A stretch of DNA of 64,000 nt from Candidatus Omnitrophota bacterium. Lineage in GTDB: Bacteria > Omnitrophota > Gorgyraeia > Duberdicusellales > 4484-171. Made by a program: the position numbers and the translations under genes. The notes beneath the pieces were generated by a model that saw nothing but the letters and a program-made list of their open reading frames with translations, was not told where the DNA came from and did not search any database. Every line of letters begins with the position of its first letter. The first letter of the stretch is position 1. Positions 15,011 through 37,153 of the stretch are shown piece after piece. Location: the NCBI GenBank assembly GCA_014729775.1, contig WJJJ01000013.1:2947-66946 (forward strand), given 5' to 3'.

Positions 15011-15066
15011 ACTGTCTGTAGTGCGTTCAGTGAGGAGTGACATTTTTTGAGGAGAGAGGAGTTGGC

Positions 15067-15780
15067 ATGAAGAAGTATGTGTGTCTTGTTTCGTTGTTAA
15101 TGCTGATGATGTACACCCCGGGTGCGTACGCGCTCGTGACCAATATTTCGCTTGATCCGGTTGATTGGGAAGTGGTGCCCGGATCTCAGACGATTAATTC
15201 CTCTCTAAGTAATCCGTCGCCGGATATGCTGCGGATCCAGAAAAGTTCCGCAAATCCAGGCAGCGGGCTGGGCGCATTCTATCAGACGACAGATAGGTAC
15301 GATTTCACTGACGCGATACTCCAGTACCAATGGCGATTCAACGGCCAGGGATCTTATGGGAACGTGTCGATCGGGCCTCGCCCATGGCCGGAAGGTTCAG
15401 GGGTCGGCGGCCGCTTTACCAGCGGCTGGTCTTTTGCGGGGAGTACGCTCATCACTTCCAATCAGTGGTATTATACTCAGTTGATTATTCATGACGATTT
15501 ATCCTATAGTTACGATATCAGCGCGTTGGGATACGGAGAAGGCGGTTTTGTGTCATCGACCGGGTCGCTTTCTTCTGCCCAGTACGATTCTCTTCAGGAC
15601 GGGATCTTTCGCGTGAACATATTTGACAACTGGGCGGCGAATCAATACGTGGATATCACCGATGCGACAATCGAAAGCGAGGGCGGTCCGCAGGGCCCGA
15701 TTCCCGAACCGGCAACCCTGCTGCTGCTTGGTAGCGGCCTGCTGGGGCTGGGCGGGAAGCGGCTGCGGCGCAGAAAATGA
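15067..15780 (+). CDS. PEP-CTERM sorting-domain protein
   Basis: RBS GGAG + ATG 15067; signal peptide MKKYVCLVSLLMLMMYTPGAYA; C-terminus IPEPATLLLLGSGLLGLGGKRLRRRK. Confidence 0.85.
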   Translation: MKKYVCLVSLLMLMMYTPGAYALVTNISLDPVDWEVVPGSQTINSSLSNPSPDMLRIQKSSANPGSGLGAFYQTTDRYDFTDAILQYQWRFNGQGSYGNVSIGPRPWPEGSGVGGRFTSGWSFAGSTLITSNQWYYTQLIIHDDLSYSYDISALGYGEGGFVSSTGSLSSAQYDSLQDGIFRVNIFDNWAANQYVDITDATIESEGGPQGPIPEPATLLLLGSGLLGLGGKRLRRRK

Positions 15781-16447: not shown

Positions 16448-16591
16448 GTGTCGGTATCTTTGACAAAGTCGGATATGTTAACAACGCTTTCGGCGAAAGA
16501 GAGAGGCGAGAGCCTTACAGAGGGAGTTATGACCAGAAATAAGGCAAAATCAGGCCGAAAGAGAAGTTTTTTTGCATTGACGGCTACTTTT

Positions 16592-16607
16592 TGGCACAGG
16601 AATTGCT
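16592..16607 (+). promoter_or_regulatory. sigma-54 (-24/-12) promoter TGGCACA-N4-TTGCT
   Basis: tTGGCACaggaaTTGCTt; GG 16593-94, GC 16605-06, 10-nt spacing; ~75 nt upstream of ATG 16682. Confidence 0.75.
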
Positions 16608-16681
16608 TTAATATCAGGTGGAACGTGGGAACACAAATGAATAGCTTGAAACGGAAGAGAGCAGAACAAGGAGGAATAGCG

Positions 16682-17575
16682 ATGAAAAGAGTTTTAGGAG
16701 TAGCAGCATTGGGGATTTTACTTACGGTGTGCGGCAACGCGTTTGCGTTTCACGCCAGTAACATTCAGTTTGATCTGACGCCGGCCGGTATTACCGGGAC
16801 CACTCCTGACGGTGATAATGTAACCGGTTTTTTCAATCAGTTGCAGACATATATGCAGACGTCATCTTACGTGACGGATAACGGAGACGGGTTGCCGTCT
16901 GTAGGAGATACGTTTGTGGATGTGGGTGATTTGAATGTGACCGCGTTGCTTGGTGGCGGGTCACTGTTGGATACCGAAGGGTTGAACACGCCGACGCTCG
17001 GGTATGAAATTACCGGTCGCTGGGATGATTTGACCGGCGGAATCGTGGATGCGTCGGTATCCGGTGGGGGAACAACGACCCTTTTGTATGATTACACCGG
17101 CGGAACGCTGAATATGTACGCGGACCAGCCGCCCAACCAGACTTACAACAGCGGTATTGGCTCCAACGATGACAATCCGGCAACGTTCACCGACGGGTCG
17201 TTGATCGGTACCCTTCAGCTTGTGAGCGGAAGCGGTTCGTTGATTGTTGACGCGGCCGGCAATCCTATTCAGGGCGCGACTACCCTTTCCTGGAGATTTA
17301 CCAATATGCTTCCCGGGTTTTGGCTGGATGCGGCCGGTAATGATCTGAGCACTTACGTGTTTACTGTAGGTTGGGAAGTACAGGCGCTGTCCGGCTCGGA
17401 TACTCATGGGGAGACGTTGATTCTTACCGATAACGGTGACGGTACCTATCGTGTTGACTCAGATCATGACGGTTCCGTAAGTGTGGGCGTGATTCCGGAA
17501 CCGGCGTCTCTGCTTCTTTTGGGCGGCGGATTGTTTGGGTTAGCCGGCATTGGTATTCGCAAGAAAAAGAAATAA
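16682..17575 (+). CDS. PEP-CTERM sorting-domain protein (G/T/D-rich)
   Basis: RBS GGAGG 16670-74 + ATG 16682; signal peptide MKRVLGVAALGILLTVCGNAFA; C-terminus VIPEPASLLLLGGGLFGLAGIGIRKKKK; the listed ORF 16448.. is an in-frame upstream extension without RBS. Confidence 0.85.
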   Translation: MKRVLGVAALGILLTVCGNAFAFHASNIQFDLTPAGITGTTPDGDNVTGFFNQLQTYMQTSSYVTDNGDGLPSVGDTFVDVGDLNVTALLGGGSLLDTEGLNTPTLGYEITGRWDDLTGGIVDASVSGGGTTTLLYDYTGGTLNMYADQPPNQTYNSGIGSNDDNPATFTDGSLIGTLQLVSGSGSLIVDAAGNPIQGATTLSWRFTNMLPGFWLDAAGNDLSTYVFTVGWEVQALSGSDTHGETLILTDNGDGTYRVDSDHDGSVSVGVIPEPASLLLLGGGLFGLAGIGIRKKKK

Positions 17576-18682: not shown

Positions 18683-18763
18683 CGGATGTGGGTGAGCGGA
18701 GGAGGGGTGACGAAGAGTTGACAGAGGGCGAAAAAAGAGAGATTATAACGAGAGGAGGTGAGG

Positions 18764-19468
18764 ATGAAGCTGAGAATTGAGGACGGCGGCGTGTATCATA
18801 TATTTAATCGGAGCATCGCCAATTTTGTTATTTTTCATACGGAGAGCGATTATAGAAGGATTATCTGCGCTTTTTCTTTTTTTCAATGGAGAGATCTTCC
18901 CTGTAGTTTCAACCGGCTTCTGAAACGGATTGAAACGGGTCAGCTCACAGAAAAGGACATTTTAAAAAAACAGATTCGATTACCGCGCACTCAAATCATC
19001 GCCTATTGCCTCATGCCGACTCATTTGCATATGATTTTAACACAGATAACTGCTGACGGAATAGCTCAGTATATGAAAAACGTACAGAACAGCTATACAC
19101 GCTATTTCAATACCAAGTACCACAGAAAAGGGCCCTTATGGGAAAGTCGGTATAAAAAAGTTCGGGTTACTACTGACAACCAGTTGCTGCATTTGACCCG
19201 TTACCTGCATTTAAATCCGGTCACGGCTCATCTGGTTGACGATCCGGAGCAATGGCCGTATTCTTCGTATCATGAGTACCTCAACCGTATTCCTGCAGAC
19301 GAGAGGATCTGCGGGTACGAAGATGTATTGGAAGTCAAACCTCGATCTTACCAGAAATTCGTAAGAGAACGCATTCATGATCAACGGGATATTGCCGCGC
19401 TCAAGAAATTTCATTTGGAAGATTGCGGCGATCATTTGTATGCAAAAATACCTTCTGTTCAATCTTGA
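18764..19468 (+). CDS. IS200/IS605-family Y1 (HUH) transposase, REP-associated tyrosine transposase (RAYT)-like
   Basis: YHIFNRSIANFVIF N-terminus, HUH motif LMPTHLHMIL, catalytic-Tyr region YTRYFN...RYLHLNPV; gene is conspicuously AT-rich relative to flanks. Confidence 0.75.
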   Translation: MKLRIEDGGVYHIFNRSIANFVIFHTESDYRRIICAFSFFQWRDLPCSFNRLLKRIETGQLTEKDILKKQIRLPRTQIIAYCLMPTHLHMILTQITADGIAQYMKNVQNSYTRYFNTKYHRKGPLWESRYKKVRVTTDNQLLHLTRYLHLNPVTAHLVDDPEQWPYSSYHEYLNRIPADERICGYEDVLEVKPRSYQKFVRERIHDQRDIAALKKFHLEDCGDHLYAKIPSVQS

Positions 19469-19542: not shown

Positions 19543-21924
19543 GTGCTTGCAAATCCGGCGCGTTTCGATTATGATAAGGACGTGGCTGCCTTCATTCGCC
19601 GATTCATTTTAGTCCTTTTGCGCCGGCCGCTGATATCGATCAGCGTGACCGGAGCAATTACGCTTCTGGCCCTCTCAGTCCTGCCGAAAATTCAAATCGA
19701 TCACAGCGTTGACGTATTCTTTGATCGTGACAGCCCCAGCTACGTGCAGTTTCAGGAATGGAAAAAAGAATTCGGAAGCAACCAGCTGATCGTGGTTGCG
19801 CTCGATTCCGGAGAGGTGTTTACCGAGAAATCTCTTCGGGTGATCCGTACGCTTACTCTCGCGTTTGAACGCCTGCCTCACGTGGACGAGGTGACCAGTA
19901 TTACCAATGTCAATGATATCCGGGGTTCCGATCAGGATTTTATCGTCGAGAAGTTTATTAAAGAGATCCCTTCTGATCCGGACGCGCTGTCCCGTCTCGA
20001 AACCGCCGCGCTTCAGAATCCGCTTTACGTGAAAAATCTAATTTCTCCGGACGGAATGGTTGCCGGTATCTCCATCGAGCTCGTCCGTCATGAAGGAGAA
20101 GATGATACCTATAAGAAGGAAGTCATCGAGGATGTATTCGAAATCCTTCAGAAGGAAGTCCCCTCTTCCCATGAGTATTACGTAAGCGGACTGACCACTA
20201 TCGAACATTTCTATGCCCGGTATATGCAGGAGGATCTCAAACGGTTCCTGCCGTTGATCTTCGTTTTTCTAATCGCAGTGTTGGTGATAAGTTTTCGGCG
20301 TCTGGGCGGCGTCCTTATTCCGCTGGTGACGATCACGGTGAGTCTGGTCTGGACAATGGCCTTCCTCTACTTCTGCGGGTTTTCCATCAATAACGTGACG
20401 ACGATTATTCCTCCGATCATCTTGGCGATCGCGGTTGCCGACAGCGTGCATTTAGTGGGGGAAACCCTGCAGAGGGCGCGAAGGGGGGATTTTTGCGGCG
20501 GGAAGGAAGAAAGTTCCGCCGTGGCGGAGACCGCGATGCATTTGCTTAAGCCCTGCGCGCTGACGACGCTCACTACGATGATCGGTTTTTATTCTCTCAC
20601 GGTGAGCCGGATCCCGCCGGTGCGGGAGCTGGGGATCGTCGCGGGAACCGGGGTCTTCTTTGCTTTTGTGCTGACCTTTACCTTTTTGCCCGCGCTGATC
20701 AAACAGTTTCATTTGTGTGCGATGAAGCCCGGCGGCGGGCGCGGGGCGCTGGACAGCGGGTTCGACGCGTTTTTAAAGAAGATGGCCGGATTCAGCGAAC
20801 GTTTTCATCGGGCGATTCTCTGGGGCGCGGTGCTTCTGGTCGCGGGCTGTGTGTGGGGTACGACGTTCATTCAGTCGGAAACAAGCGTGCTTGAATATTT
20901 CAAACCGCAGACACAAGTGTATCAAGCCACTACGTTTATGGAGGAGAACCTGAGCGGAGTGCATTTCCTTCAGATTTCCCTGCGTGCTCAGGAACGGGAT
21001 TATTTCAAGGATCCGGCGCGGCTCCGCGAGATCGAGAATCTGGAGCGTTTTTTGGAAAAGGTTCCTGAAGTCGATAAAGTCGAATCGGTCGTTGATTACG
21101 TCAAGGAGATCAATAAGTCGTTCCATAACGAGAATCCCGGCTATTACGCCATCCCGGAGTCACGGCCGCTTCTGGCGCAGTATCTCCTGTTGTACGGCGC
21201 CCGGGATTTACGTGAGTTTGTTGATTCCCAGTGGGAATGGACGACTGTGCAGGTCCGTCTCACCGAACATAGCACGGCGCGGCTGAGTGAAGTGATCGAA
21301 AATGTAGAGGGATATCTGCACCGTCATTTCAGCGGGATTGAAGCAAGGGTCCTGGGGCAAACCGTGCTTGAGGTGGAGACGAACAACGCCGTTACTGAGG
21401 GGCAGGTCAAAAGTCTGGCGATGGCAATGGCGGTGATCTTTGTCATGATGTTTTTCGTGTTCCGTACTTTCGGGGCCGGCATGGTGAGCATGGGGGCGAA
21501 TCTCTTGCCTCTTCTGATAAATTTTGGGATAATGGGGTTTGCCGGGATTCGGCTTGACAGCGCGACGTCGATGATTTCCGCGATCGCCATCGGCATTATC
21601 GTTGATGACACCATTCATTACATGCACTCGTTTCAGCATTCTCTGCAGTCGCGGGGAAAGTACCGGGAGGCGATGTATGATGCGTTCCATCAAAAGGGCC
21701 GGCCGATTATTCTTACGTCCCTAATTTTGTTCTGCGGTTTCGGAGTGATGATATTTTCTCATTTTGTCCCCACGTATTATTTCGGAATGCTGAGCGCGCT
21801 GTTGATGATTCATGCCTTGGTGGTCGATCTGATCATTCTGCCCAGCGCGCTGATAGCGCTGAAGCCCCGGTTTCGGTCGGGGCGGAAAGGAAAGGAGAAC
21901 CGCGAAAATGAACTCGTCCGCTGA
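19543..21924 (+). CDS. RND-superfamily exporter, MMPL/COG1033 type (12 TM, two large periplasmic loops)
   Basis: Two 6-TM bundles with sterol-sensing-like segments (ILAIAVADSVHL / AIAIGIIVDDTIHY); GTG start, true start may be GTG 19582. Confidence 0.8.
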   Translation: MLANPARFDYDKDVAAFIRRFILVLLRRPLISISVTGAITLLALSVLPKIQIDHSVDVFFDRDSPSYVQFQEWKKEFGSNQLIVVALDSGEVFTEKSLRVIRTLTLAFERLPHVDEVTSITNVNDIRGSDQDFIVEKFIKEIPSDPDALSRLETAALQNPLYVKNLISPDGMVAGISIELVRHEGEDDTYKKEVIEDVFEILQKEVPSSHEYYVSGLTTIEHFYARYMQEDLKRFLPLIFVFLIAVLVISFRRLGGVLIPLVTITVSLVWTMAFLYFCGFSINNVTTIIPPIILAIAVADSVHLVGETLQRARRGDFCGGKEESSAVAETAMHLLKPCALTTLTTMIGFYSLTVSRIPPVRELGIVAGTGVFFAFVLTFTFLPALIKQFHLCAMKPGGGRGALDSGFDAFLKKMAGFSERFHRAILWGAVLLVAGCVWGTTFIQSETSVLEYFKPQTQVYQATTFMEENLSGVHFLQISLRAQERDYFKDPARLREIENLERFLEKVPEVDKVESVVDYVKEINKSFHNENPGYYAIPESRPLLAQYLLLYGARDLREFVDSQWEWTTVQVRLTEHSTARLSEVIENVEGYLHRHFSGIEARVLGQTVLEVETNNAVTEGQVKSLAMAMAVIFVMMFFVFRTFGAGMVSMGANLLPLLINFGIMGFAGIRLDSATSMISAIAIGIIVDDTIHYMHSFQHSLQSRGKYREAMYDAFHQKGRPIILTSLILFCGFGVMIFSHFVPTYYFGMLSALLMIHALVVDLIILPSALIALKPRFRSGRKGKENRENELVR

Positions 21925-22801
21925 AACTGCGGGAGAGGCCGATCAATTTTTCAGAGAAGCTTTCTGCCGGAATATCGGACTGCTGACCGAAGAGGAGCAG
22001 GAAAAGCTGCGGCGTACGACCGTCGGGGTTATCGGAGCCGGCGGCGTCGGCGGGCTGCACCTGACGACTTTGGCCCGTTTAGGCGTAGGAGGTTTCCATA
22101 TTGCCGACATGGACAGGTACGAATTAGCCAATGTCCAGAGACAGTGCGGCGCGTTCGTGCATACCCTCGGAAAAAATAAGGCGGAGGCAATGCGGGAGAT
22201 CGCGCTGGGGATCAATCCTCATCTGCGGCTTAAAGTATTTTCCGAGCAGATCGGCCGTGAAAATATTCATCAGTTCCTGGAAGGGGTGGATGTGCTCATT
22301 GACGGCATCGATTTTTTTTCGCTGGAAGCGCGGCGCTGCGCTTTCGATGCCGCCCGGGAACGGGGAGTATATACCGTCACCGCGGGGCCTCTGGGGTTCG
22401 GCAGTGCGATGCTGGTGTTCGCTCCCCAAGACGGGATGACGTTTGACGAATATTTTGATATTCATCCTGACATGAACGAGACGGAGAAGATTATCGCGTT
22501 CGCGGTAGGGCTTGCGCCGGCGGCTCTGCATATGCGTTATTTAAATCTTGGTTCGGTGAATCTGAAGAAAAAATCGGGACCGTCTCTGGTAACCGCGTGC
22601 ACGCTGTGCGGGGTGCTTGCCGCCACTGAGGTGATTCGCATTGTATTGAGAAAAGACAGACCGGCCGCGGTGCCGCATTATTTTCAATACGATCCGTATC
22701 TGCAGAAACTGAAGAAAGGATACGTGCGGTGGGGGAATCGTCATCCTCTTCAACGGGTCAAACGCTGGTATCTCGCCAGAAAACTCGGCGCTCGCGCCTG
22801 A
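21908..22801 (+). CDS. ThiF/MoeB/TcdA-family E1-like adenylyltransferase
   Basis: Rossmann nucleotide loop VGVIGAGGVGGLHLTTLARLGVGGFHIADMDRYELANVQRQ; 17-bp overlap with RND gene. Confidence 0.75.
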   Translation: MNSSAETAGEADQFFREAFCRNIGLLTEEEQEKLRRTTVGVIGAGGVGGLHLTTLARLGVGGFHIADMDRYELANVQRQCGAFVHTLGKNKAEAMREIALGINPHLRLKVFSEQIGRENIHQFLEGVDVLIDGIDFFSLEARRCAFDAARERGVYTVTAGPLGFGSAMLVFAPQDGMTFDEYFDIHPDMNETEKIIAFAVGLAPAALHMRYLNLGSVNLKKKSGPSLVTACTLCGVLAATEVIRIVLRKDRPAAVPHYFQYDPYLQKLKKGYVRWGNRHPLQRVKRWYLARKLGARA

Positions 22802-22837: not shown

Positions 22838-23623
22838 ATGACTTACGGGAAGAGAATATTATGGATGTCCGCTTTATTTACCTGTATATGGCTCTCCTTC
22901 CCTCCCGGCGCAGCCGCCCAGGAGCTGAGCGGAGGGCAGATCATGGAAAAATCCTATTTTCGCGAGGACGGGAATGACGCTGAATTCAAGGTTGAGATGA
23001 TCTTAATCGACCGCCGCGGCCGCGCCAGGGACCGTACGCTGATGATGTATTTTAAAGATTACGGGAATTTGCGGAAAACATTTCTCAAGTTCACGGAACC
23101 GGCTGATATCGAGGGTACGAAGTTCTTATCCTGGGAAACCGAAAACGGCGAGGAGACGCAATACTTGTACCTTCCCGCGCTGGGCAGATCCAAGCGGATC
23201 GTGAGTAGCCAAAGGGACCTGCGGTTTGTGAATACTGATTTTACCTACGAGGATATGGAACGGCGCGAGCCCGGTCAGGATACCCATCGGTTTCTGCGGG
23301 ACGGTGAATCCCTGAACCGGCCGTGCTTTGTGGTGGAGAGCGTGCCCAAACCGGACACTTCCCAATACGGAAAACGCGTCAGCTGGGTAACGAAAGATTC
23401 TTTTGTGGTCGTCGCGGTTGATTTTTACGATACCCGGGAGAAGAAAATTAAGGAATTACGGGTGAAGGAGTTGGAGGAGGTCGAAGGGATCCCGACGGCG
23501 ATGAAAACGATAATGAAGGACCTTAAAGAGGATCACCGGACGGTGATGAAGGTTGAGTATGTGGAATATAATCAGGGGCTTGCGGATACGCTGTTTACGC
23601 TTTCCGCTCTCGAACGTAATTAG
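22838..23623 (+). CDS. LolA-like outer-membrane lipoprotein-sorting protein (type commonly paired with MMPL/RND exporters)
   Basis: Signal peptide; ~260 aa; KFLSWE...YLYLPALGRSKRIVSSQRDLRFVNTDFTYEDM resembles the LolA-like family; call from memory of the family. Confidence 0.5.
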   Translation: MTYGKRILWMSALFTCIWLSFPPGAAAQELSGGQIMEKSYFREDGNDAEFKVEMILIDRRGRARDRTLMMYFKDYGNLRKTFLKFTEPADIEGTKFLSWETENGEETQYLYLPALGRSKRIVSSQRDLRFVNTDFTYEDMERREPGQDTHRFLRDGESLNRPCFVVESVPKPDTSQYGKRVSWVTKDSFVVVAVDFYDTREKKIKELRVKELEEVEGIPTAMKTIMKDLKEDHRTVMKVEYVEYNQGLADTLFTLSALERN

Positions 23624-25001
23624 AAGTATTGGATTGGCGTTCGCGCTGAGTGCGGCGGCTTCGCATCCGATCACTGCGCAGGATGCGCTGGAAGGAGCAG
23701 TTTCCTGGTCTTCTTCAGGGGAGCTCGAATTCCGGGTGTTTCAGGACACGGTTGAAGATACCGAATACGAAGATCACCGGCAGTATTTCAGCCGGGCATT
23801 ATGGGAGAATGAGGTCCGGCTCGAAGGAAGTCCTTTGCGCGTTCAGATAAACGCTGAAGCGGTCGGAGAAGCCTGGTCGGGGGACGAGAGCAGAGAGGAC
23901 GCGGATGTATTCCTGCACGAAGCGTACGCGAGTTATGTCAAGGGAGCGCATGCGTTCACCGTCGGGCGTCAAGTGGTGACCTGGGGCCGGATTGAACGGT
24001 CCAGGCTGGACGTGTGGAATCCGCAGAGTTACCGGTGGTTTGTATTGTTTGATAAACAGCGTCGGAAAAGGGCGGTTCTGATGAGCCGCTATGAATATAT
24101 TGCTCCCCGCTTTGATCTCGAATTTGTCTGGATGCCCTGGTTTGAACCTTCTCAGTTGCTGTACTTCGGATCGGACTGGGCGCTGTTTGATCACACGAAA
24201 AAAATCATACGAGAGGAAGGTTATCCGCCGGCGGTGAAATCTCTGGTGAATGCGATCGAAATCCGGGCCGATCCTGAGCGGGAGAAGCACGCGCTCACCA
24301 ATTCTCAAGGCGGAGCGCGACTGCGCTCCCGGGCCGGGGATATCGATTACGCGCTCTATTATCTGAACGTGGCGCAGAATCTTGGAGTCCTGCAGGAATC
24401 GACGCCAAAGGGGAACCTGGTGAAACAGTTTTTGTATCTTCCCTCCGCCGGGAACCTGAACCGGCTGCTCGCGGCTGCCCCGGCCGGAGATGATCTTATT
24501 CTGCGCAAAGAACATCCAAGAATGCACCTGATCGGTGCCGACGCAGAAACCGTGTGGGGAGTAAGTTCGGTGCGAGCGGAGCTGGCCTACGCGACCAAAA
24601 TGGCGTATTTGCGGGAGGATTTTTCGTATGCGATCCACGATACCCTTTTTGGGGCGTGCGGGGCCGATTACACCGGTTCCGGCGGTCTGTATCTGAATAT
24701 CGATTTTCTTTACAGGCAAATTCTCGGTTATAGAGAGTTGTTTGCCGACGAAGAATATACCTTCCAAGTCGACGGCACGCTGCGGAAGGATCTCTGGAGA
24801 GGCAGCGCCGAATTCGTTCTGGACGGTTCGTTTAATTTCTCGCGGCATGACTGGATGATCAATCCGGTGGTCACCTGGAAAGCGAATCCCTCGTTTCACG
24901 TTTCCGCGGGAATGGTTTTTTTCGGCGGGGACTTAACGACTCTTTTTGGACGGTTTGATCAGAAAGATCTGGTATACGTCCGTACTCAATACTTCTTTTA
25001 A
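23553..25001 (+). CDS. putative outer-membrane beta-barrel protein (RND-cassette associated)
   Basis: Signal-peptide-like N-terminus (LAFALSAAASHPITAQD), alternating amphipathic strands, C-terminal ...YVRTQYFF terminal Phe; start uncertain (overlaps previous gene). Confidence 0.45.
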   Translation: MSMWNIIRGLRIRCLRFPLSNVIRSIGLAFALSAAASHPITAQDALEGAVSWSSSGELEFRVFQDTVEDTEYEDHRQYFSRALWENEVRLEGSPLRVQINAEAVGEAWSGDESREDADVFLHEAYASYVKGAHAFTVGRQVVTWGRIERSRLDVWNPQSYRWFVLFDKQRRKRAVLMSRYEYIAPRFDLEFVWMPWFEPSQLLYFGSDWALFDHTKKIIREEGYPPAVKSLVNAIEIRADPEREKHALTNSQGGARLRSRAGDIDYALYYLNVAQNLGVLQESTPKGNLVKQFLYLPSAGNLNRLLAAAPAGDDLILRKEHPRMHLIGADAETVWGVSSVRAELAYATKMAYLREDFSYAIHDTLFGACGADYTGSGGLYLNIDFLYRQILGYRELFADEEYTFQVDGTLRKDLWRGSAEFVLDGSFNFSRHDWMINPVVTWKANPSFHVSAGMVFFGGDLTTLFGRFDQKDLVYVRTQYFF

Positions 25002-25026: not shown

Positions 25027-25848
25027 TTACCGCATGATTTTTTCGAAATCGTACGTGGGGTAACATTTCTTGAGGTAGGCGAGGTGTTCCGGAGAGCAGT
25101 TTCGGAGGATTGGATGGCGTTCCACGAAAAACGAGCGCAGGTCGTCTTCCGAAAAACGGAATTTTCCGCTGAATTTTTCGGGTTCGTTCTTTACCCGCAG
25201 GAACATTTTCTGTAAATCTTCACGCTGCATCGTTTTGCATCGTTCTTCAAACCCGTGAAGGTTGATGTATTTGCCTATTGCCGGTGCTCCGTTGGCGTGA
25301 TTGTACGTCTTGAGCTCTCCCAGATCCTCAAACAGGAGAAAATCATAAATAAGCTTATGTTTTGGATGGAACGTGATGCAGGCAAAATCATAATCGTGAT
25401 ATATCGAAAGATAATCAAAGACAAGCTTGAACAGTGAAAAGATGAAGAACATTTTTTTTGCGTTCAACATGACCGATACGCCGCGAAAGAGGTCGGTATT
25501 GCTGGCGAGCATGGTCACTTCGCATACTTTTTTCCCCTGATCGCGTAACGCATCGATTTCATTGCGGTAAATTGCGTCCATGGGCAGGCCCAGAGGGGAA
25601 TCGGGGATCACCGAAACGGTGGAGAGGACAATGTCGTCTGCGACCGTGACAAACGTGCTGCTTTGCGGCAGTGCGTTGTAGACCGTGTAGCGCATCTGCG
25701 ACGGACATTCCTCGGTGTATCCGCGTTTCAGATATTCCCGATAGACGAGAGAGTACGCCTGAGTGATTTCCTCGCGTATGCGTGCGATACGGTAATCCAC
25801 CGAACGTAAGAGAGTTTTTACGTCTATGCAGTCTTGTGACATATTCAT
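25027..25848 (-). CDS. putative N-acyl amino acid synthase (LuxI/FeeM-like; exosortase-system-associated type)
   Basis: ~270 aa, N-terminal RIREEITQAYSLVYREYLKRGY; AT-rich gene; assignment from size, context and weak recollection of the family, not a firm match. Confidence 0.4.
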   Translation of the reverse strand: MNMSQDCIDVKTLLRSVDYRIARIREEITQAYSLVYREYLKRGYTEECPSQMRYTVYNALPQSSTFVTVADDIVLSTVSVIPDSPLGLPMDAIYRNEIDALRDQGKKVCEVTMLASNTDLFRGVSVMLNAKKMFFIFSLFKLVFDYLSIYHDYDFACITFHPKHKLIYDFLLFEDLGELKTYNHANGAPAIGKYINLHGFEERCKTMQREDLQKMFLRVKNEPEKFSGKFRFSEDDLRSFFVERHPILRNCSPEHLAYLKKCYPTYDFEKIMR

Positions 25849-26327
25849 GACTTTACGTGAATGTCCCCGTGCTGATCGAGATATTCGCTGAGAATCGTCC
25901 GGCTGACGTAGAAAACGAATTTCTGCCGGTCTTGAGGGGACATTTTGTGAAACCGGATTCCGGTAAGATACGCGGGATACGAAGAGGAGCCTGAATGCGT
26001 GTTCTCCGGCTGGGAATTCCAGATGACGTCGGCATCAACCGAGAAAGGTTTCTGTTCGTCCGGAAGCTTCAGTTTAAGCGAGATCACCTGTCCCCGGGTG
26101 AGCGGGACAGGGGAAAGAAAGCGCATCCCTCCGCCGCTGATATCTTCAATCGCGAGAGGGCGATGCCAACGATTCCGGCCGCTCATTGCAAATTCCATCT
26201 CCAGCGGGAGAGTGACCCGGTCGGTCTTTCGCTTCTCTTTGGCCAGCAAAGTCTGCAGTTTTTTCAACTCTTCCCGCATGAATGCTCCTCGCTGTTCCAT
26301 TATCGGCATATTTGGGCGTACTGTCAA
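25845..26327 (-). CDS. PilZ domain protein (c-di-GMP binding)
   Basis: KEKRKTDRVTLPL (RxxxR) and EDISGGGMRF (DxSxGG) PilZ motifs; ATGA-type overlap with downstream gene on minus strand. Confidence 0.75.
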   Translation of the reverse strand: MTVRPNMPIMEQRGAFMREELKKLQTLLAKEKRKTDRVTLPLEMEFAMSGRNRWHRPLAIEDISGGGMRFLSPVPLTRGQVISLKLKLPDEQKPFSVDADVIWNSQPENTHSGSSSYPAYLTGIRFHKMSPQDRQKFVFYVSRTILSEYLDQHGDIHVKS

Positions 26328-26569
26328 GGCGAAATCCGCCGGTTTGAGAGAGAACGACGCGTCCGCGAGAAGGAGAGAAGAGCTCGCGTGATCATCCGTG
26401 GGAGGGCATCACAAAATTTGTGGAATTTTCCCACAAAGAGCCAAAAATGTCGAAAAGATTGACATTGTTTAACTTGTTGATAAATATAGTGTTAAAGAAA
26501 CATTGTTCGTTTCCTTTGAGGCTTTGTTGATATTTATAGACATTTCGCCGATGGGGGGAACCGCCGAAT

Positions 26570-26597
26570 GAAAACGGTTTCAAGGAAAACGGTTTTA
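26570..26597. promoter_or_regulatory. two tandem AAAACGGTTTT palindromes (candidate enhancer / bEBP upstream activating sequence)
   Basis: Perfect 11-bp palindromes at 26571-26581 and 26586-26596, third half-like site AACCGTTTA at 26630-38; 75-100 bp upstream of the sigma-54 -24 element at 26673. Confidence 0.4.
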
Positions 26598-26671
26598 TAT
26601 CTCTAACAGTTTGATTCCCAACCGTTTATAGTTGACTTATTTCACCCTTTTTCGCGGGAGTAACTCTTATT

Positions 26672-26687
26672 TGGCATGGAATCTGCT
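26672..26687 (+). promoter_or_regulatory. sigma-54 (-24/-12) promoter TGGCATG-N4-CTGCT
   Basis: tTGGCATggaatCTGCTt; GG 26673-74, GC 26685-86, 10-nt spacing; 30 nt upstream of start 26717. Confidence 0.65.
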
Positions 26688-26716
26688 TTACCTTATACAA
26701 GCGCAGGTAAAAGAAA

Positions 26717-27598
26717 ATGGAGCGAATAGTCGGATATCCCAGTAGAGATGTGGATAAAAAGTTCCGCCGGGCGGTGCGAACCGTACGGAAGACCCTGCGG
26801 GAAATTACAAGACCTGACGTAAGAAGGGTCTGTGCTTCTTTTTTCCTGGGGGTGTTCCTGACCGGTACTGTTGCCGCGGTGGTGTGGTTAGTGCGCAGTT
26901 CTGTGTATGCTCAGTCGACTATGGTACGGTCGGCGGCTGTGCCGCTGGAATCGGTTCGTTGGGTGATGAGCGGGAGCTTGGCGAGCGCATTGATCAGTTT
27001 CGCCCGCGTAAAGTATCGCCTGGGAAAACGGTGTTTTGATGTGGCGGCGTCTGCGATCGGACTTATTTTGTCGGCGCCGTTGCTGATCATTATCGCGATA
27101 CTGGTGAAGCTTGAATCGGAAGGTCCGGTGTTCTTTACCCAGAAGCGGCTGGGGAAGAACGGCAAAATTTTCAATATTTGGAAATTTCGCACGATGCGCA
27201 ATAACGCCGAGATGGAAACCGGTCCGGTATGGGCGCAGGATGACGATCCCCGGGTCACCCGCTTGGGAAATTTCCTGCGTAAAACGCATATCGATGAACT
27301 GCCGCAATTATGGAATGTGGTGAGAGGGGACATGAGTCTTATCGGTCCGCGTCCGGAACGTCCCGAATTCTCGGAGCAGATTGCCTTTCACGTGCCGCAG
27401 TTTCGTCAGCGGATCGAGGTGAAACCAGGGATTACCGGTTTGGCACAGGTGCGCTATCAATACGGAGCATCAATACGCGATGCGTCGAGAAAATTGCGGT
27501 ACGATCAATTATATCTGCAGCGGATGTGTTGGTTTCTTGATTTCCAGATCCTGCTTTGGACTCTGGGACGGGTGATGACCGGCGAAGGCGCCAGGTAA
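26717..27598 (+). CDS. exopolysaccharide priming polyprenyl-phosphate sugar phosphotransferase (bacterial sugar transferase, EpsB/WbaP C-terminal type)
   Basis: KRCFDV...LLIIIAILVKLESEGPVFFTQKRLGKNGKIFNIWKFRTM...DELPQLWNVVRGDMSLIGPRPERPEF. Confidence 0.85.
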   Translation: MERIVGYPSRDVDKKFRRAVRTVRKTLREITRPDVRRVCASFFLGVFLTGTVAAVVWLVRSSVYAQSTMVRSAAVPLESVRWVMSGSLASALISFARVKYRLGKRCFDVAASAIGLILSAPLLIIIAILVKLESEGPVFFTQKRLGKNGKIFNIWKFRTMRNNAEMETGPVWAQDDDPRVTRLGNFLRKTHIDELPQLWNVVRGDMSLIGPRPERPEFSEQIAFHVPQFRQRIEVKPGITGLAQVRYQYGASIRDASRKLRYDQLYLQRMCWFLDFQILLWTLGRVMTGEGAR

Positions 27599-27615
27599 AC
27601 GAAGTTTCTCTGCTG

Positions 27616-28422
27616 ATGAAAACAGCGATACATATTTGGAAAGATTCCTGGCAGCTGCTCCAACGGCATTTAAAAGTGATCGTGCCGTTCGGGGTGACCG
27701 CGCTGGCGGGAGTGTTGGCCTTGTGGATTTTATATTTGGCGCCGCAGAAACCGGTATCGTATCTGCTGGCACCGCCGATCAGAAAATTCCTGGGGGAAAA
27801 GTTCCTTCATTATCCGTATCATTTATTTATTCTGCCCAAGTTGTTCTATTACGCAGAAAGGGTGATCATCGCCGTAGTCGGCGTGCTGATGACCGGAACC
27901 GCGATCGGGATGATCAAGGAAACGTTTGAAGGGAAAAGACCCCGTATTATGCGTAATTTCACGTACGCGCTTCGGAGATTTTTCGCGTTGTTTGTGATTC
28001 TCGCGGTGATGATGGGCGCGGCGATCCTGACGTCGGAAGCCGTAAAAGCGGTATTTGCGCAGAGGAACTTCGCTACGGCGCTCCTGATGTATCTGGCAGC
28101 GCTGATCCCTCAGGCGTTGTTTATTTACGCGCTGCCCGCGATCATTTTGGGCAGACAAAATGTGATCAGGGCATTCCATGAGGGAATAAAATTATTCGGG
28201 CGCCGGTCTTTGACGACTATTCTTTTTATTGTAGTTCCTGCGCTGGTCTATGTGCCAGTGCTGGCGCTCAACCAGATCGGCAGAAATTTAATCGTGAATA
28301 TCGCTCCGGAAGTGATCCTGGTGATGATCGGCCTGGGAATCATTGCGTCGTTGATCATCGAGATATGGACGATACTCGCGCCGACGGTATTGTATTTGAA
28401 AACAAAGGAGGGAAGTGTATGA
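27616..28422 (+). CDS. polytopic membrane protein, function unknown
   Basis: 6-7 predicted TM helices; ATG 27616 (listed ORF starts 27556); ATGA overlap with next gene. Confidence 0.4.
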   Translation: MKTAIHIWKDSWQLLQRHLKVIVPFGVTALAGVLALWILYLAPQKPVSYLLAPPIRKFLGEKFLHYPYHLFILPKLFYYAERVIIAVVGVLMTGTAIGMIKETFEGKRPRIMRNFTYALRRFFALFVILAVMMGAAILTSEAVKAVFAQRNFATALLMYLAALIPQALFIYALPAIILGRQNVIRAFHEGIKLFGRRSLTTILFIVVPALVYVPVLALNQIGRNLIVNIAPEVILVMIGLGIIASLIIEIWTILAPTVLYLKTKEGSV

Positions 28423-31612: not shown

Positions 31613-32473
31613 ATGAATAAGAAGATCTCATTTGCCGGTATCGAACTTACCCTCAGGACGTTGCGGCGGATTGTGCTTATGAGCGCGCTTTTCGCGGCGG
31701 TGTATTTTCCCGTAATCCCCCATTTTATCTCGCGGTTTTCCGCCCGTGATTCCTATTATTCTCATGGTTTCTTGATCCCTGTGGTTTCGCTGTATTTGGT
31801 GTTTCGCAGCCGGGAAATACTGGCCCGTATACCCACATGGCCGCATCCGGCCGGTTTCGCGCTGATTCTTTTAGGGCTGGCAATGTATCTGATCGGGTAT
31901 GTGCTTCAGATCAATTTCGGGATGTACGCGAGCCTGCTGCCGGTGCTCTTCGGATTAGCGCTGTATTTGGGGGGATCGCAATACTTCCGGGTATTGTTCT
32001 TTCCCATTCTATTTTTGGGATTCATGCTGCCGCTGCCGCAAGTATTCATTATCGGCGCTTCATTCCGGTTGAAACTCATGGCCGCGCAGGCAGCGACGTT
32101 CCTGTCGCGAATGATGGGAATAGAGGCAGTGCAAAATGGATCGATGATTTACTATCCGGGCGGGCAGATACTTGTCGGAGATCCCTGCAGCGGGTTGAGG
32201 TCGTTGATTGCATTTATCGCGCTCGGGGCGCTGTGTGCTTATCTGGCACGGGGAAGTACGATCAAACGGGTGTTACTGTTTGTTCTTGCCGTGCCGGTCG
32301 CGCTTTTCTCAAATCTGTTGAGGCTGACCTTTCTGGTCGGGGTCGGCTATGTCTACGGCGAAAAAATCGCTTCGGGGACGGTGCATGATGTTTCAGGGAT
32401 GCTGGTGTTTGTACTCGGTTTTCTCTGTTTTGTGGGTCTTATCCGGCTGTTAGGCTGCCGGATTGAGGTGTGA
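31613..32473 (+). CDS. xrtA: exosortase (EpsH/XrtA-type archaeosortase/exosortase family)
   Basis: 8 TM helices; conserved Cys in GDPCSGLRSLIAF and downstream Arg in NLLRLTFLVG, the exosortase catalytic signature; XrtA subtype assigned from context only. Confidence 0.85.
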   Translation: MNKKISFAGIELTLRTLRRIVLMSALFAAVYFPVIPHFISRFSARDSYYSHGFLIPVVSLYLVFRSREILARIPTWPHPAGFALILLGLAMYLIGYVLQINFGMYASLLPVLFGLALYLGGSQYFRVLFFPILFLGFMLPLPQVFIIGASFRLKLMAAQAATFLSRMMGIEAVQNGSMIYYPGGQILVGDPCSGLRSLIAFIALGALCAYLARGSTIKRVLLFVLAVPVALFSNLLRLTFLVGVGYVYGEKIASGTVHDVSGMLVFVLGFLCFVGLIRLLGCRIEV

Positions 32474-32474
32474 A

Positions 32475-33116
32475 ATGCGCAAAAATATTTTTCGTTCTTT
32501 TCTGACCGTTCCCTATTTTCAGGTCGCCTGCCTGTTCGCAGCTGCGGCATTGTTGATCGGGAAGATGGAACTGTCTGCCCGTTCCTCTCCGGCTCCCTCT
32601 CAAATTTCGTTCCCGATGCAGATTGGAGAATGGAAAGGAAAAGACCTGGAGGTTGACGAAAGTACCTATGAGATCCTGGAAACGCGGGACGTGATCTCCC
32701 GGGAATATACCGATCCCGACGGCGATACGCTGTATTTTTCGCTCGTGTACGCGCAGGATACCCGGCACAGCTTTCATCCTCCCGAACTCTGTTATGTCGG
32801 GGGCGGTGTGGAGGTCATGGGCAAGGAAAAGGCCGAAATCCCGCTCGATCAGGATCAATTAACCGTAAACGTCCTGTACATGAAAGCCGGGTATGGAAAC
32901 CTGCGCGCCTGGTACTGGTTTTCTGCCGGTTCGGAATTCACCGACAGCTATGTAGGCCAGCAAATACGGCTTTTTTTCGACGTCATGCGCGGGGAAAAAC
33001 CGTCCGGCGCGCTGATCAGAGTCTCGACCCCTTCTCCGGAATCGGCACCCAAGGCCGAATCCTTCATCCGAAAGCTCATCCCTCCTCTCAAACGGACCCT
33101 CGAAAAAATAGGTTGA
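32475..33116 (+). CDS. epsI: EpsI-family exosortase-associated protein
   Basis: Single TM then FHPPELCYVGGGVEV (H.PE.CY.G.G EpsI motif); ATG 32475 (alt TTG 32463), adjacent to exosortase stop. Confidence 0.8.
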   Translation: MRKNIFRSFLTVPYFQVACLFAAAALLIGKMELSARSSPAPSQISFPMQIGEWKGKDLEVDESTYEILETRDVISREYTDPDGDTLYFSLVYAQDTRHSFHPPELCYVGGGVEVMGKEKAEIPLDQDQLTVNVLYMKAGYGNLRAWYWFSAGSEFTDSYVGQQIRLFFDVMRGEKPSGALIRVSTPSPESAPKAESFIRKLIPPLKRTLEKIG

Positions 33117-35761: not shown

Positions 35762-37153
35762 TTAACCGCGGATTCTTTTCCGGCGATGATAGGGAGGGAT
35801 CCTCAATTCTTCCCGGTATTTTGCCACTGTTCTTCGTGCGATTCTTATACCCTTGCCACTCAGCTGCTGCGCGATTTGCGAGTCTTTGAGGGGCTCATCC
35901 GCCGTTTCTTCTTCAATCAGCGAAAGGATTTCTTCTTTTACCATTTCCTGGGAAATATCGGCGCCGTTGCTTGAAGGAAAAGATTTGGTAAGGAAAAAAT
36001 CAAGCCGGTAGATGCCGTAGGGCGTGGAAATATATTTGTTATTTACTACCCGGCTTACGGTCGATTCGTTGCGGTGTGCTTTCAGGGCGATATCCTTGAG
36101 TGTTAACGGATTGAGCCGGGCCGGATCTCCCTGAAGAAAGAATTCTTTTTGATGTTCCACGATAAGGGTCCCGATCCTGCGTATGGTTTCTTCTCTTTTC
36201 ATCACCGCTTTGATTACCGTGAGAGCGTATTTCACTTTTCCGCGAATGTACCGTTTCGTTTCGGGAGAAAGCTCTCCTTCCCTGAGCAATTCCAGGTAAC
36301 GGCTGCTCACCCGTAGTCGGGGCAGGAACGAATTGTTTACCCTGATTTCCAGACTGCTTTTATGCTGTTCTACGGTAAGGTCTGGTTGAGAGGCGGCGTT
36401 AAACTGCCGGGTAAAGGCAGTGAATTTGTCCCCGGGGCGGGGAGCGAGAGAGGAAATTTCCTTTTTCGCGGCAAGTACCTCTCGATGCGGGATTTTGAGC
36501 TTCCTGGAGATCGCCGCGATTTTATTTTTCGCGAGTTCGGGGAGACAGGAAGTAATAATACGATAGGCGGGAGAGTCTTTTTTCCCTCTGCGTTCCAGCT
36601 GAAGCAGAAGACTCTCTTTTAGATTACGCGCCCCGACTCCCGGAGGATCGCAGGTTTTTAACGTTTCTATCGCCGTTTCTATTTCTTCCGGAGAGAACGG
36701 GGTATGATGTTCGTTGCGCAGGAAGAGCGAAATTTCCTCAGAAGAGAGATTGAGATAACCGTTTTCATCTAAATTGCCCACCAGAAATTCCAGGATCAGC
36801 TGCTGACGGGAAGAGAGAGGCTGGATACGAATTTGACTGAGTAAATGCTCGGGTAGCGTGCGGGAGGACGTGATCAGCGATTCGGTGTAATTGCGCCGTT
36901 TGGCGGCTTCTTCCGGAGACAGACCCAGCGCAATATAGGGGTTTTCCTGTTCGGGGCGCGTGAGCTGTTCGGTTTGCTTCAGTAAATCCCTTTCCGGAGG
37001 ATCTATACATTCCAGTATCGGATTTTCTTCTGCCTGTGCTTCAAGAAAATGGCGTAAATCGGTTACCGGGAGCTGCAAAATACGCAGAAACTGACGCATT
37101 TGCGGGGTAAGTGCCAGCGTCTGGGTGAGTTTCTGACTTTGTTTAATTTCCAT
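35762..37153 (-). CDS. rpoN: RNA polymerase sigma-54 factor
   Basis: Gln-rich N-terminal region I, C-terminal HTH and RpoN box ARRTVAKYREELRIP. Confidence 0.9.
   Translation of the reverse strand: MEIKQSQKLTQTLALTPQMRQFLRILQLPVTDLRHFLEAQAEENPILECIDPPERDLLKQTEQLTRPEQENPYIALGLSPEEAAKRRNYTESLITSSRTLPEHLLSQIRIQPLSSRQQLILEFLVGNLDENGYLNLSSEEISLFLRNEHHTPFSPEEIETAIETLKTCDPPGVGARNLKESLLLQLERRGKKDSPAYRIITSCLPELAKNKIAAISRKLKIPHREVLAAKKEISSLAPRPGDKFTAFTRQFNAASQPDLTVEQHKSSLEIRVNNSFLPRLRVSSRYLELLREGELSPETKRYIRGKVKYALTVIKAVMKREETIRRIGTLIVEHQKEFFLQGDPARLNPLTLKDIALKAHRNESTVSRVVNNKYISTPYGIYRLDFFLTKSFPSSNGADISQEMVKEEILSLIEEETADEPLKDSQIAQQLSGKGIRIARRTVAKYREELRIPPYHRRKRIRG

Follow-up and report, generated by a model that had tools for sequence, protein, structure and literature searches.

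What might an overlapping pair of genes, one resembling N-acyl amino acid synthases (NAS) and the other coding for a PilZ-domain protein, be doing on the opposite strand within an exosortase and exopolysaccharide (EPS) locus of an Omnitrophota bacterium? A first-pass annotation of the 64,000-nucleotide stretch of DNA analyzed here (the window) had viewed the pair as an AT-rich, exosortase-associated NAS placed under c-di-GMP control. We examined this proposal using family profiles, structure models and the comparison of related loci.

The NAS and PilZ genes

The pair comprises minus-strand ORFs at 25027-25848 (273 aa) and, as mechanically called, at 25845-26327 (160 aa). The four nucleotides they share read ATGA in the sequence, holding both the TGA stop of the PilZ gene and the ATG of the NAS gene, just as had been annotated, and we read the pair as a single operon with coupled translation. 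All further long minus-strand ORFs in the first 35 kb overlap plus-strand ORFs supported by family matches; hence, the NAS and PilZ genes are the sole supported minus-strand genes ahead of rpoN, and the earlier statement that no others occur in the first 35 kb stands among family-supported ORFs. The meaning attached to this opposite-strand placement is not supported, as the pair is collinear with its neighbors in several related loci. The genes of the locus with a bearing on the argument are:

19543..21924, plus strand: HAE3/MMPL-type RND inner-membrane transporter (TIGR00921 E 4e-64, HpnN-like matches)
21908..22801, plus strand: ThiF/E1-like adenylating enzyme, TyzB/OxzB-like (NCBIfam, Pfam)
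22838..23623, plus strand: LolA-like periplasmic carrier PF17131, related to DUF1329 (Pfam E 2e-59)
23553..25001, plus strand: DUF1302-type predicted outer-membrane barrel, start codon uncertain (Pfam DUF1302 E 1e-7)
25027..25848, minus strand: FeeM-family NAS, 273 aa (Pfam FeeM, profile, AF2)
25845..26279, minus strand: PilZ-domain protein, 144 aa from ATG 26279 (Pfam PilZ, motifs, RBS and promoter)
26717..27598, plus strand: EPS priming polyprenyl glycosyl-phosphotransferase, EpsB-like (TIGR03025 E 2e-87, TIGR03013 E 1e-78)
31613-32473: exosortase
32463-33116: EpsI
35762-37153, minus strand: rpoN

The NAS protein matches the Pfam FeeM model PF21926 with an E-value of 3.3e-37 (128.1 bits, cut-off 27) across profile positions 1-153 of 158, which places it among the N-acyl synthases, as had been suggested, rather than among ORFans. 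A profile of 35 NAS homologues compared against FeeM (2g0b) gave an E-value of 2.4e-31. The catalytic domain spans approximately residues 20-195 and is followed by a conserved helical C-terminal domain (residues 200-273). Glu110 (nt 25519-25521) is invariant in the 35 sequences and aligns with the glutamate of the FeeM KKLAEV motif, i.e. the active-site position corresponding to Glu95 of FeeM and Glu103 of Nas354; mutation of the latter abolishes the activity of Nas354 (PMC4897644). The AF2 model (pLDDT 91.5) adopts an alpha/beta fold of the GNAT/AHL-synthase-like kind, similar to that of crystallized FeeM, and its top Foldseek matches are chains of 2g0b (TM (target) 0.81-0.86, 28-31% identity), with LasI following as a distant fold neighbor at 13% identity. 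Membership in the exosortase-associated family TIGR03694, which the first-pass annotation had favored, is rejected, as is that in Autoind_synth: the former was unmatched at E <= 1 in an NCBIfam scan that had no positive control for this model and returned only PRK14852 (matched at positions 31-202), and the latter was unmatched at E <= 1 in Pfam. The OlsB-type model PF13444 likewise went unmatched by the NAS in the Pfam scan.

The mechanical call places the start of the upstream gene at a TTG at 26327, where a near-consensus sigma-70-like promoter also begins. As judged from the sequence, translation most likely begins at the ATG at 26279, which is preceded by GAGGAG. The product matches Pfam PilZ (PF07238; E 6.4e-14, 52.6 bits, cut-off 22.5) and retains both motifs of the domain, namely RxxxR as RKTDR before the barrel (residues 17-21, nt 26217-26231) and DxSxxG as DISGGG within it (residues 46-51, nt 26127-26144), which confirms its annotation as a PilZ protein.

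The description of the pair as conspicuously AT-rich holds weakly for the NAS gene (GC 0.476, z = -1.9 relative to 52 genes of the window, of which only one is lower) but not for the PilZ gene, whose GC is average against the same genes (0.536, z = -0.05). In the NAS gene, GC is depressed at codon positions 1 and 2 only (GC3 0.591, z = -0.5), and its low GC reflects amino acid composition rather than codon usage. Neither gene has an unusual GC3, and neither bears a sign of horizontal origin. This normal GC3, along with synteny across the phylum, leads us to reject the horizontal acquisition that AT-richness had suggested.

Conservation of the pair and its neighbors

Related loci were gathered by means of 12 closer NAS sequences. 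All distinct Omnitrophota NAS homologues (28/28) are immediately preceded by a PilZ gene in the same orientation. Furthermore, HMM searches show at least 27 of the top 150 cluster representatives to be PilZ-NAS fusions with the PilZ domain first, and five more of the 150 reach E-values below 1e-3 for PilZ in Pfam. Both halves of the fusions are collinear with the PilZ and NAS proteins of the window, and RxxxR and DxSxxG are both retained in them. The strict pairing and the natural fusions together indicate that the association is functional and not accidental, as had been supposed. When one natural fusion was modeled with AF2, the pTM reached only 0.69, and a fixed PilZ-NAS interface hence stays a proposal. 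FeeM homologues from Pseudomonas and Planctomycetota occur apart from PilZ, in contexts with MarR, methyltransferase and FAD oxidase genes, and inform little on the PilZ-NAS module.

Genes for ThiF, LolA-like and DUF1302 proteins and for an RND or MacB transporter adjoin the pair in the majority of those loci whose flanks are long enough, in either orientation, and are kept also where no exosortase is nearby; the ThiF and export genes, which the first-pass annotation had overlooked as partners, are thus the steadiest companions of the pair, steadier than the exosortase genes. The DUF1302 gene is convergent with the NAS gene in the window, and its orthologues adjoin the pair in about 20 loci. 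The ThiF gene, 2.2 kb from that for NAS, codes for a protein of the very clade that is found fused to NAS and FMN-oxidase domains: it scores 378 bits with PRK08223 (cut-off 266), 364 bits with PRK14851 and 251 bits over positions 308-585 of PRK14852, the NCBIfam model for a fusion of FeeM, ThiF and FMN oxidase, whereas ThiF/MoeB models give it no more than 90 bits. Its Pfam ThiF match has an E-value of 6e-49, and its GxGxxG loop reads GAGGVGG.

This constellation recalls the published acyl-oxazolone (Tyz/Oxz) pathway of NAS, ThiF and a flavin oxidase, in which TyzA/TyzB/TyzC and OxzA/OxzB convert N-acyl amino acids into acyl-oxazolones and the tyz cluster adjoins mmpL9 (PMC10404671; also PMC12479983, PMC12856293). 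Related pathways are TyzABC and TrzAS of M. tuberculosis, OxzAB of Pseudoalteromonas rubra and the stieleriacine clusters of Planctomycetota (PMC10404671, PMC12856293, bioRxiv 10.1101/2020.06.11.147165, PMC12479983). As in TyzABC/OxzAB, the NAS of the window is clustered with a ThiF-like cyclase and, just as an MMPL/RND gene adjoins the M. tuberculosis cluster, an RND transporter is encoded nearby. However, whereas TyzABC/OxzAB carry a flavin-dependent oxidase (FDO; TyzC or the OxzB C-domain), the window and most related Omnitrophota loci do not; conversely, PilZ is present in the Omnitrophota module and not reported in the acyl-oxazolone systems. A tblastn search of the window with three related FDO proteins (nitroreductase superfamily, TyzC-like) returned nothing better than an E-value of 0.2, and we reject a TyzC-like oxidase in the window; among the fetched loci FDO genes occur in L005, L019, L030 and L037 only. 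This absence makes the role of ThiF here uncertain.

The export genes have a comparable precedent in AmeABCD, where an HAE3 RND pump, DUF1302 and DUF1329 proteins constitute an envelope-spanning exporter of hydrophobes (PMC6394551); DUF1302/DUF1329 sets are also described in Pseudomonas (bioRxiv 10.1101/2020.07.04.188060). The window likewise codes, side by side, for an HAE3 pump, a LolA-like protein and a DUF1302 protein, for which a hydrophobic cargo may be presumed. Nevertheless, the fourth component (BNR/AmeC-like) was not found in the window set, a MacB-type ABC transporter replaces the RND pump in several related loci, and the association with a pair of genes for lipid synthesis is peculiar to the PilZ-NAS module.

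The exosortase surroundings and the divergent spacer

The gene for the priming transferase is divergent from the pair and, like those for the exosortase, EpsI and PEP-CTERM proteins (at least six of the latter in the locus), lies within 10 kb of it. Family matches accordingly uphold the placement of the pair in an exosortase/PEP-CTERM/sigma-54 locus. For 9 related loci, the flanking sequence retrieved includes a priming-transferase or exosortase/EpsI gene, and PilZ-NAS, ThiF and an exporter occur together in L005, L037 and L038, where the surrounding 10 kb hold no exosortase gene; the exosortase link of the pair is one of co-location only. A PEP-CTERM/exosortase-associated NAS (TIGR03694) has been described by Craig, Cherry & Brady (2011, J Bacteriol 193:5707, PMC3187218, as cited in PMC4897644). 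Like those systems, the window has its NAS gene in an exosortase/PEP-CTERM/EPS locus with sigma-54 regulators; unlike them, it does not match the model, and the module occurs apart from a nearby exosortase in some relatives.

The divergent spacer (26280-26716) is AT-rich (GC 0.42) and contains:

26285-26290, minus strand: RBS GAGGAG of the PilZ gene (sequence)
26299..26327, minus strand: predicted sigma-70-like promoter TTGACA-17-GATAAT of the PilZ-NAS operon (consensus scan, 11/12 matches)
26417..26437, no strand assigned: inverted repeat TTTGTGG-N7-CCACAAA (terminator scan and pattern search, one exact copy in the window)
26672..26687, plus strand: sigma-54-type -24/-12 element TGGCATGGAATCTGCT, 30 nt before the priming transferase ATG

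The sigma-54 promoter earlier assigned to the priming transferase is supported by this -24/-12 element and by a sigma-54-type element upstream of the orthologous gene in 8/8 related loci. None was found for the pair on the minus strand of the spacer, and we reject a sigma-54 promoter as driving it; upstream of the related PilZ genes, 27/30 had no match above threshold and 3/30 had weak, distant ones. The palindrome noted earlier in the spacer is also present: the terminator scan and pattern search both saw it, and the repeat search missed it at its settings. It is a possible activator-binding site. An Rfam scan of the window found no families, c-di-GMP riboswitches included.

A candidate c-di-GMP-gated lipid pathway

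Family membership, intact motifs, strict pairing, natural fusions and conserved neighbors directly support a PilZ-NAS module with ThiF and export partners. We consider it fairly probable that this module performs c-di-GMP-gated synthesis of an N-acyl amino acid lipid, with subsequent processing by ThiF and transfer to the envelope, in the setting of a sigma-54-controlled exosortase/EPS locus. The steps that we infer, namely c-di-GMP binding, the direction of control, the amino acid substrate, the ThiF step and export, would run as follows. The NAS would load the amino group of an amino acid with a fatty acyl chain taken from acyl-ACP or acyl-CoA; by analogy with characterized FeeM-type enzymes, this amino acid is probably aromatic. 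The PilZ protein would bind c-di-GMP and switch the NAS by direct contact, with the bound form probably turning the enzyme on, as in other PilZ-controlled biosynthetic enzymes. The ThiF-like enzyme would then adenylate the carboxylate of the N-acyl amino acid and may cyclize it to an oxazolone, and the product would be sent to the envelope or surface by the RND, LolA-like and DUF1302 set. Since the pair is conserved, sometimes fused, and located beside a lipid exporter, the surface lipid is probably made and exported only when the biofilm signal is on; and since the module lies inside a sigma-54-regulated exosortase/PEP-CTERM/exopolysaccharide locus, the lipid would be part of a matrix or surface program. 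Against this reading stand the Gly or Cys that replaces the Ser of DxSxxG in 13/30 partner PilZ proteins, the low pTM of the modeled fusion, and the lack in the window of GGDEF or EAL genes, of the flavin oxidase and of the FAAL-ACP-PlsC gene that flanks the pair in 20/28 loci.

Each link of this model has a published precedent. NAS-PilZ fusions have been known since 2016 and the NAS-exosortase link since 2011. The metagenome-derived fusion enzymes Nas343/Nas354 make N-acyltyrosines, and c-di-GMP control of N-acyl amino acid synthesis has already been proposed for them (Thies et al. 2016, Sci Rep 6:27035; PMC4897644). They have in common with the present pair a FeeM-type NAS domain with the catalytic Glu, some 80 residues following the catalytic domain, and PilZ in one functional unit. 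Set against the published description of Nas354, they nonetheless differ in order, being NAS-linker-PilZ in one polypeptide, whereas in the present pair PilZ has its own gene upstream, and the related fusions carry it at the N terminus; moreover, their clones were presumed not to belong to a pathway operon, while the conserved neighbors here include ThiF and export genes. BcsA and Alg44 are PilZ-gated polysaccharide synthases (as summarized in PMC4897644), and the proposed post-translational c-di-GMP control, with PilZ beside or fused to a biosynthetic enzyme of a biofilm program, would resemble theirs, although the enzyme here is a soluble GNAT-fold acyltransferase making a lipid rather than a membrane glycosyltransferase.

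Among the alternatives, a membrane aminolipid pathway, which we hold to be unlikely, would have the NAS act like OlsB/GlsB to yield a lyso-aminolipid to which a FAAL-ACP-PlsC protein, like OlsA, attaches a further acyl chain; the LolA-like and DUF1302 proteins, together with an RND or MacB transporter, would place this phosphorus-free lipid in the outer membrane, and PilZ would tune the flux. The conserved lipid-export neighbors, the established N-acyl then O-acyl two-step logic (PMC11631085) and a FAAL-ACP-PlsC gene (AMP-binding, PP-binding and PlsC-acyltransferase domains) adjoining PilZ-NAS in 20/28 loci are in line with it. However, the window lacks that gene, with no remnant at E <= 1e-3, the NAS is of the FeeM type (PF21926) rather than the OlsB type, and the ThiF partner and the PRK14852 fusion indicate a Tyz/Oxz-like activation of the carboxylate.

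Alternatively, the NAS, with ThiF, might supply the missing lipid partner of the exosortase, either as an amine-bearing N-acyl amino acid accepting cleaved PEP-CTERM proteins or as an activated acyl-oxazolone/adenylate lipidating the matrix, in which case c-di-GMP would gate protein anchoring. The proximity of the exosortase, EpsI, PEP-CTERM and priming transferase genes, the presence of a priming-transferase or exosortase/EpsI gene in the flanks of 9 related loci and the published NAS-exosortase genomic link (Craig et al. 2011, as cited in PMC4897644) speak for this reading; yet L005, L037 and L038 keep the module apart from any exosortase within 10 kb and the NAS is not a TIGR03694 member, and we regard it as rather improbable. 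A still more speculative version, to be taken as a long shot, would have ThiF, acting in mostly anaerobic Omnitrophota that lack the O2-dependent oxidase, yield a saturated acyl-oxazolone (azlactone) or acyl-adenylate that is delivered to the surface via the RND/LolA-like/DUF1302 set and lipidates EPS or PEP-CTERM proteins. If true, PilZ-NAS would be a c-di-GMP-gated source of the long-sought exosortase lipid partner.

The PilZ partner could also be a structural adaptor, subunit or chaperone of the NAS rather than a c-di-GMP sensor, in the manner of those PilZ proteins that do not bind the messenger. Only 16/30 partner PilZ proteins have a canonical [D/N]xSxxG, the Ser being replaced by Gly or Cys in 13/30, which implies that c-di-GMP binding may not be universal; additionally, the window has no GGDEF or EAL genes or motifs, i.e. 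no enzymes making or degrading c-di-GMP. But RxxxR is kept in 30/30 partners, and the window protein, which is canonical, and the fusion family have both motifs, leaving this idea very little weight. Finally, the idea that the pair is an AT-rich islet gained by horizontal transfer, or that two unrelated genes came to lie side by side by chance, as the low GC of the NAS and the strand of the pair might suggest, is refuted by the normal GC3, the natural fusions and the conservation of pairing and neighborhood across Omnitrophota in both orientations, and merits practically no credence.

N-acyl amino acids and acyl-oxazolones make up an expanding group of bacterial lipids, and little is known of their physiological roles or regulation. 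The loci compared here show an entire uncultured phylum that ties NAS to a c-di-GMP-receptor domain, by overlapping gene or fusion, beside ThiF and a dedicated envelope exporter. This suggests a candidate cargo for the poorly understood DUF1302/LolA-like/HAE3 exporters, and the many natural split and fused PilZ-NAS variants are available for biochemistry. Thus, the module offers a testable model for second-messenger control of a surface lipid within a sigma-54/exosortase matrix program.

The PilZ-NAS gene pair and its products

The first-pass annotation described two overlapping minus-strand genes as the only ones on that strand in the first 35 kb, and this layout is borne out by the two ORFs:

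25027-25848 (-): NAS (FeeM-family N-acyl amino acid synthase), 273 aa
25845-26279 (-): PilZ domain protein, 144 aa, upstream of NAS

They share four bases, with the TGA stop of the PilZ gene lying within the ATGA that holds the NAS ATG, and no other minus-strand gene ahead of rpoN (35762-37153, -) is supported, because the other long minus-strand ORFs of the first 35 kb all overlap family-supported plus-strand ORFs. The window belongs to an uncultured Candidatus Omnitrophica (Omnitrophota) genome, and the NAS product is 100% identical to the NCBI entry "hypothetical protein GF333_03185". The PilZ gene likely starts at the ATG at 26279, which has GAGGAG ahead of it; the TTG at 26327, the mechanical start, falls on the -35 hexamer of a promoter-like TTGACA-17-GATAAT site matching at 11/12 positions. 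The description of the pair as AT-rich applies weakly to the NAS gene (GC 0.476; z = -1.9 versus 52 window genes) and to the spacer at 26280-26716 (GC 0.42), but not to the PilZ gene (GC 0.536; z = -0.05 versus the same genes) or to the third codon positions of NAS (GC3 0.591; z = -0.5). The AT-richness is thus largely a matter of which amino acids one gene encodes, together with the spacer, and the GC and GC3 figures lend no support to a horizontal origin.

Searches with HMMs of N-acyl synthase families gave a strong match of NAS to Pfam FeeM (PF21926; E 3.3e-37) and none to Autoind_synth in the Pfam scan; membership in TIGR03694, as initially proposed, was not recovered in the NCBIfam scan, where the single match is PRK14852 (a 989-residue model; positions 31-202). 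A profile of 35 NAS homologues retrieved the FeeM crystal structure 2g0b (E 2.4e-31), and Glu110 of NAS, invariant across that alignment, aligns with the glutamate in the KKLAEV motif of FeeM; its equivalent in Nas354, Glu103, is required for activity (PMC4897644). The AlphaFold2 model of NAS (pLDDT 91.5, pTM 0.89) has FeeM as its nearest structure (TM 0.81-0.86 on the target), followed by the AHL synthase LasI and GNAT enzymes, and places residues 200-273 in a confident helical domain that FeeM does not possess. The PilZ gene product matches Pfam PilZ (E 6.4e-14) and displays both c-di-GMP-binding signatures, RKTDR (RxxxR) and DISGGG ([D/N]xSxxG).

Coupling and fusion of PilZ and NAS across relatives

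We gathered 38 related loci (L001-L038) from homologue look-ups and a scan that took one genome for each GTDB species, and classed their ORFs by HMMs made from the window proteins. A PilZ gene lies directly upstream on the same strand in 28/28 distinct Omnitrophota-type full-length NAS homologues, with spacing between the mechanical ORFs ranging from a 4-nt overlap to a 90-nt gap; a few overlaps look larger, but only because the longest-ORF start was used. The copies without a PilZ gene are one truncated extra NAS (L020) and nine distantly related homologues of Methylomirabilota, Planctomycetota and Pseudomonas. RxxxR is intact in all 30 partner PilZ proteins, and the second-motif Ser is replaced by Gly or Cys in 13 of the 30, a caveat on the pairing evidence.

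When 1.84 billion cluster representatives were searched exhaustively with a profile, 4485 relatives came up at E <= 1e-3 (1079 at E <= 1e-30), and at least 27 of the best 150 of these carry an N-terminal PilZ domain detected by HMM. A Pfam scan of ten long representatives confirmed the domain in P0124 and scored PilZ below E 1e-3 in five others missed by the HMM (P0177, P0187, P0203, P0223 and P0259). The fusions likewise come from Candidatus Omnitrophica and are labeled "PilZ domain-containing protein" by NCBI. The fused proteins are collinear with both window proteins, the C-terminal helical domain included, and retain both PilZ motifs. The two genes follow each other in the order of the fused domains, and the window pair is thus a fusion protein in split form; on comparative grounds this is strong evidence that PilZ acts on NAS.

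Several Omnitrophota genomes also have tandemly duplicated PilZ-NAS units (L001 4601-7764, L005 9538-12414, L037 8802-11209), either split pairs, with duplicated pairs in L001 and L005, or two adjoining fusion genes, which suggests paralogues differing in substrate specificity. The distant FeeM homologues of the Pseudomonas putida group (L034 9254-13273) have no PilZ and are accompanied by a MarR regulator, a methyltransferase and a FAD_binding_4 oxidase; an oxidase of the latter type also adjoins the fused gene in L038 (11260-12852).

Predicted export genes and an acyl-oxazolone-like module

Four plus-strand genes converge on the pair:

19543-21924 (+): HAE3/MMPL-type RND transporter
21908-22801 (+): ThiF-like enzyme
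22838-23623 (+): LolA-like protein
23553-25001 (+): DUF1302 barrel

These genes also border the pair in related loci, in convergent orientation in some and collinear in others; hence, conservation does not extend to the strand flip of the window, and the opposite-strand layout emphasized earlier is incidental. About 18-20/28 distinct loci have the LolA-like and DUF1302 genes, most of those lacking them being short contigs, and a MacB-type ABC transporter replaces the RND pump in several. Sets of HAE3 RND, DUF1302 and DUF1329 proteins are regarded as hydrophobe exporters (PMC6394551). An exosortase, EpsI or priming transferase gene occurs in about ten loci; L005, L037 and L038 have none of them inside 10 kb. 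Those three loci retain export genes (and L005 and L037 also ThiF). On these counts, the export set stays next to the pair more consistently than the exosortase genes do. A large AMP-binding/PP-binding/PlsC-acyltransferase gene (900-1000 aa) abuts the pair in 20/28 loci and is absent from the whole window; it sits, for example in L006, L007 and L009, between the priming transferase and PilZ genes, a slot occupied in the window by the 437-nt AT-rich spacer (26280-26716).

The window ThiF scores 378 bits against PRK08223, over the model cut-off, 364 against PRK14851 and 251 against PRK14852, and at most 90 against true ThiF/MoeB models. Scans of related proteins resolve PRK14851 into ThiF and a Rv1355c/Acg-type FMN oxidase, and PRK14852 into a FeeM-like domain followed by the same two, which is the enzyme set of published acyl-oxazolone pathways. 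In Mycobacterium tuberculosis, Tyr or Phe is N-acylated by TyzA, the nitroreductase-superfamily oxidase TyzC desaturates the product with consumption of O2, and the ThiF homologue TyzB cyclizes it at the expense of ATP, the cluster adjoining mmpL9 (PMC10404671); OxzA/OxzB, TrzA/TrzS and the Planctomycetota stieleriacine clusters follow the same logic (PMC12856293, PMC12479983, bioRxiv 10.1101/2020.06.11.147165). The window module resembles these pathways, yet lacks one defining feature, as no FMN/flavin oxidase was found in the window; among the fetched loci it occurs only in L005, L019, L030 and L037. A possible reason for its absence is that an O2-dependent step would be useless to anaerobes.

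Several further genes of the window deserve mention. An ORF resembling REP-associated tyrosine transposases (18758-19468, +; NF047646, 68 bits, short of the cut-off of 80), with the lowest gene GC in the window (0.425, z = -3.4), separates the PEP-CTERM gene array from the RND gene, at about the place where L019 has a nitroreductase/flavin-dependent oxidase-like gene. A 288-aa hydrophobic protein without a Pfam or NCBIfam match (27556-28422, +) has orthologues in 13 related loci, and its gene directly follows the priming transferase in the window and several of these. The exosortase of the 31613-33116 (+) region, followed by a separate EpsI gene, scores 174 bits against the XrtA cut-off of 208 and exceeds the general exosortase cut-off. 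At 4590-8820 (+), a gene whose 846-aa product has two ATP-grasp modules comes after two genes for polysaccharide deacetylases, one of them with DUF3473; such genes are usual accessories in PEP-CTERM/EPS loci, and they may decorate the polysaccharide with amino acids.

Regulation and relation to earlier work

The sigma-54 promoter claimed for the divergent priming transferase (26717-27598, +) was recovered as the sigma-54-type element TGGCATGGAATCTGCT, 30 nt ahead of its ATG, with a counterpart preceding that gene in 8/8 related loci; such elements are essentially absent upstream of PilZ genes in related loci. The palindrome described in the divergent region stands to the extent that an inverted repeat is present in the spacer at 26417-26437. 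The window holds rpoN and two sigma-54 activators, and three further strong -24/-12 elements (10-11 of 11 specified positions):

12384-12399 (+): sigma-54-like, just upstream of a PEP-CTERM gene
13515-13530 (+): sigma-54-like, just upstream of a PEP-CTERM gene
16592-16607 (+): sigma-54-like, within mechanical ORF 16448-17575

The position of the last inside the ORF suggests that its true start is later than the mechanical one. Nearby, the 16-mer CGGCAACCCTGCTGCT is identical at 14937-14952 and 15710-15725 (+), pointing to the adjacent ORFs that contain it, 14333-15010 and 15037-15780, as recently duplicated paralogues. The picture from these predicted elements is one of matrix genes under sigma-54 transcriptional control; NAS appears to have its own promoter, and we propose that its activity would be controlled by c-di-GMP via PilZ.

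NAS-PilZ fusions making N-acyltyrosines (Nas343/Nas354), with domain order reversed relative to the Omnitrophota fusions, were reported in 2016, when their control by c-di-GMP was also proposed (PMC4897644); the genomic linkage of NAS genes to PEP-CTERM/exosortase systems dates to 2011 (as cited in PMC4897644). In the literature searched, we found no publication joining the NAS-PilZ, exosortase and exporter links for Omnitrophota. The core idea of the first-pass annotation was right in substance, with corrections needed on three points: TIGR03694 membership, meaningful AT-richness and strand layout. What is new is the strict, phylum-wide coupling of PilZ and NAS, in split and N-terminally fused forms, and its conserved association with a TyzB-like ThiF and with an envelope lipid-export set.
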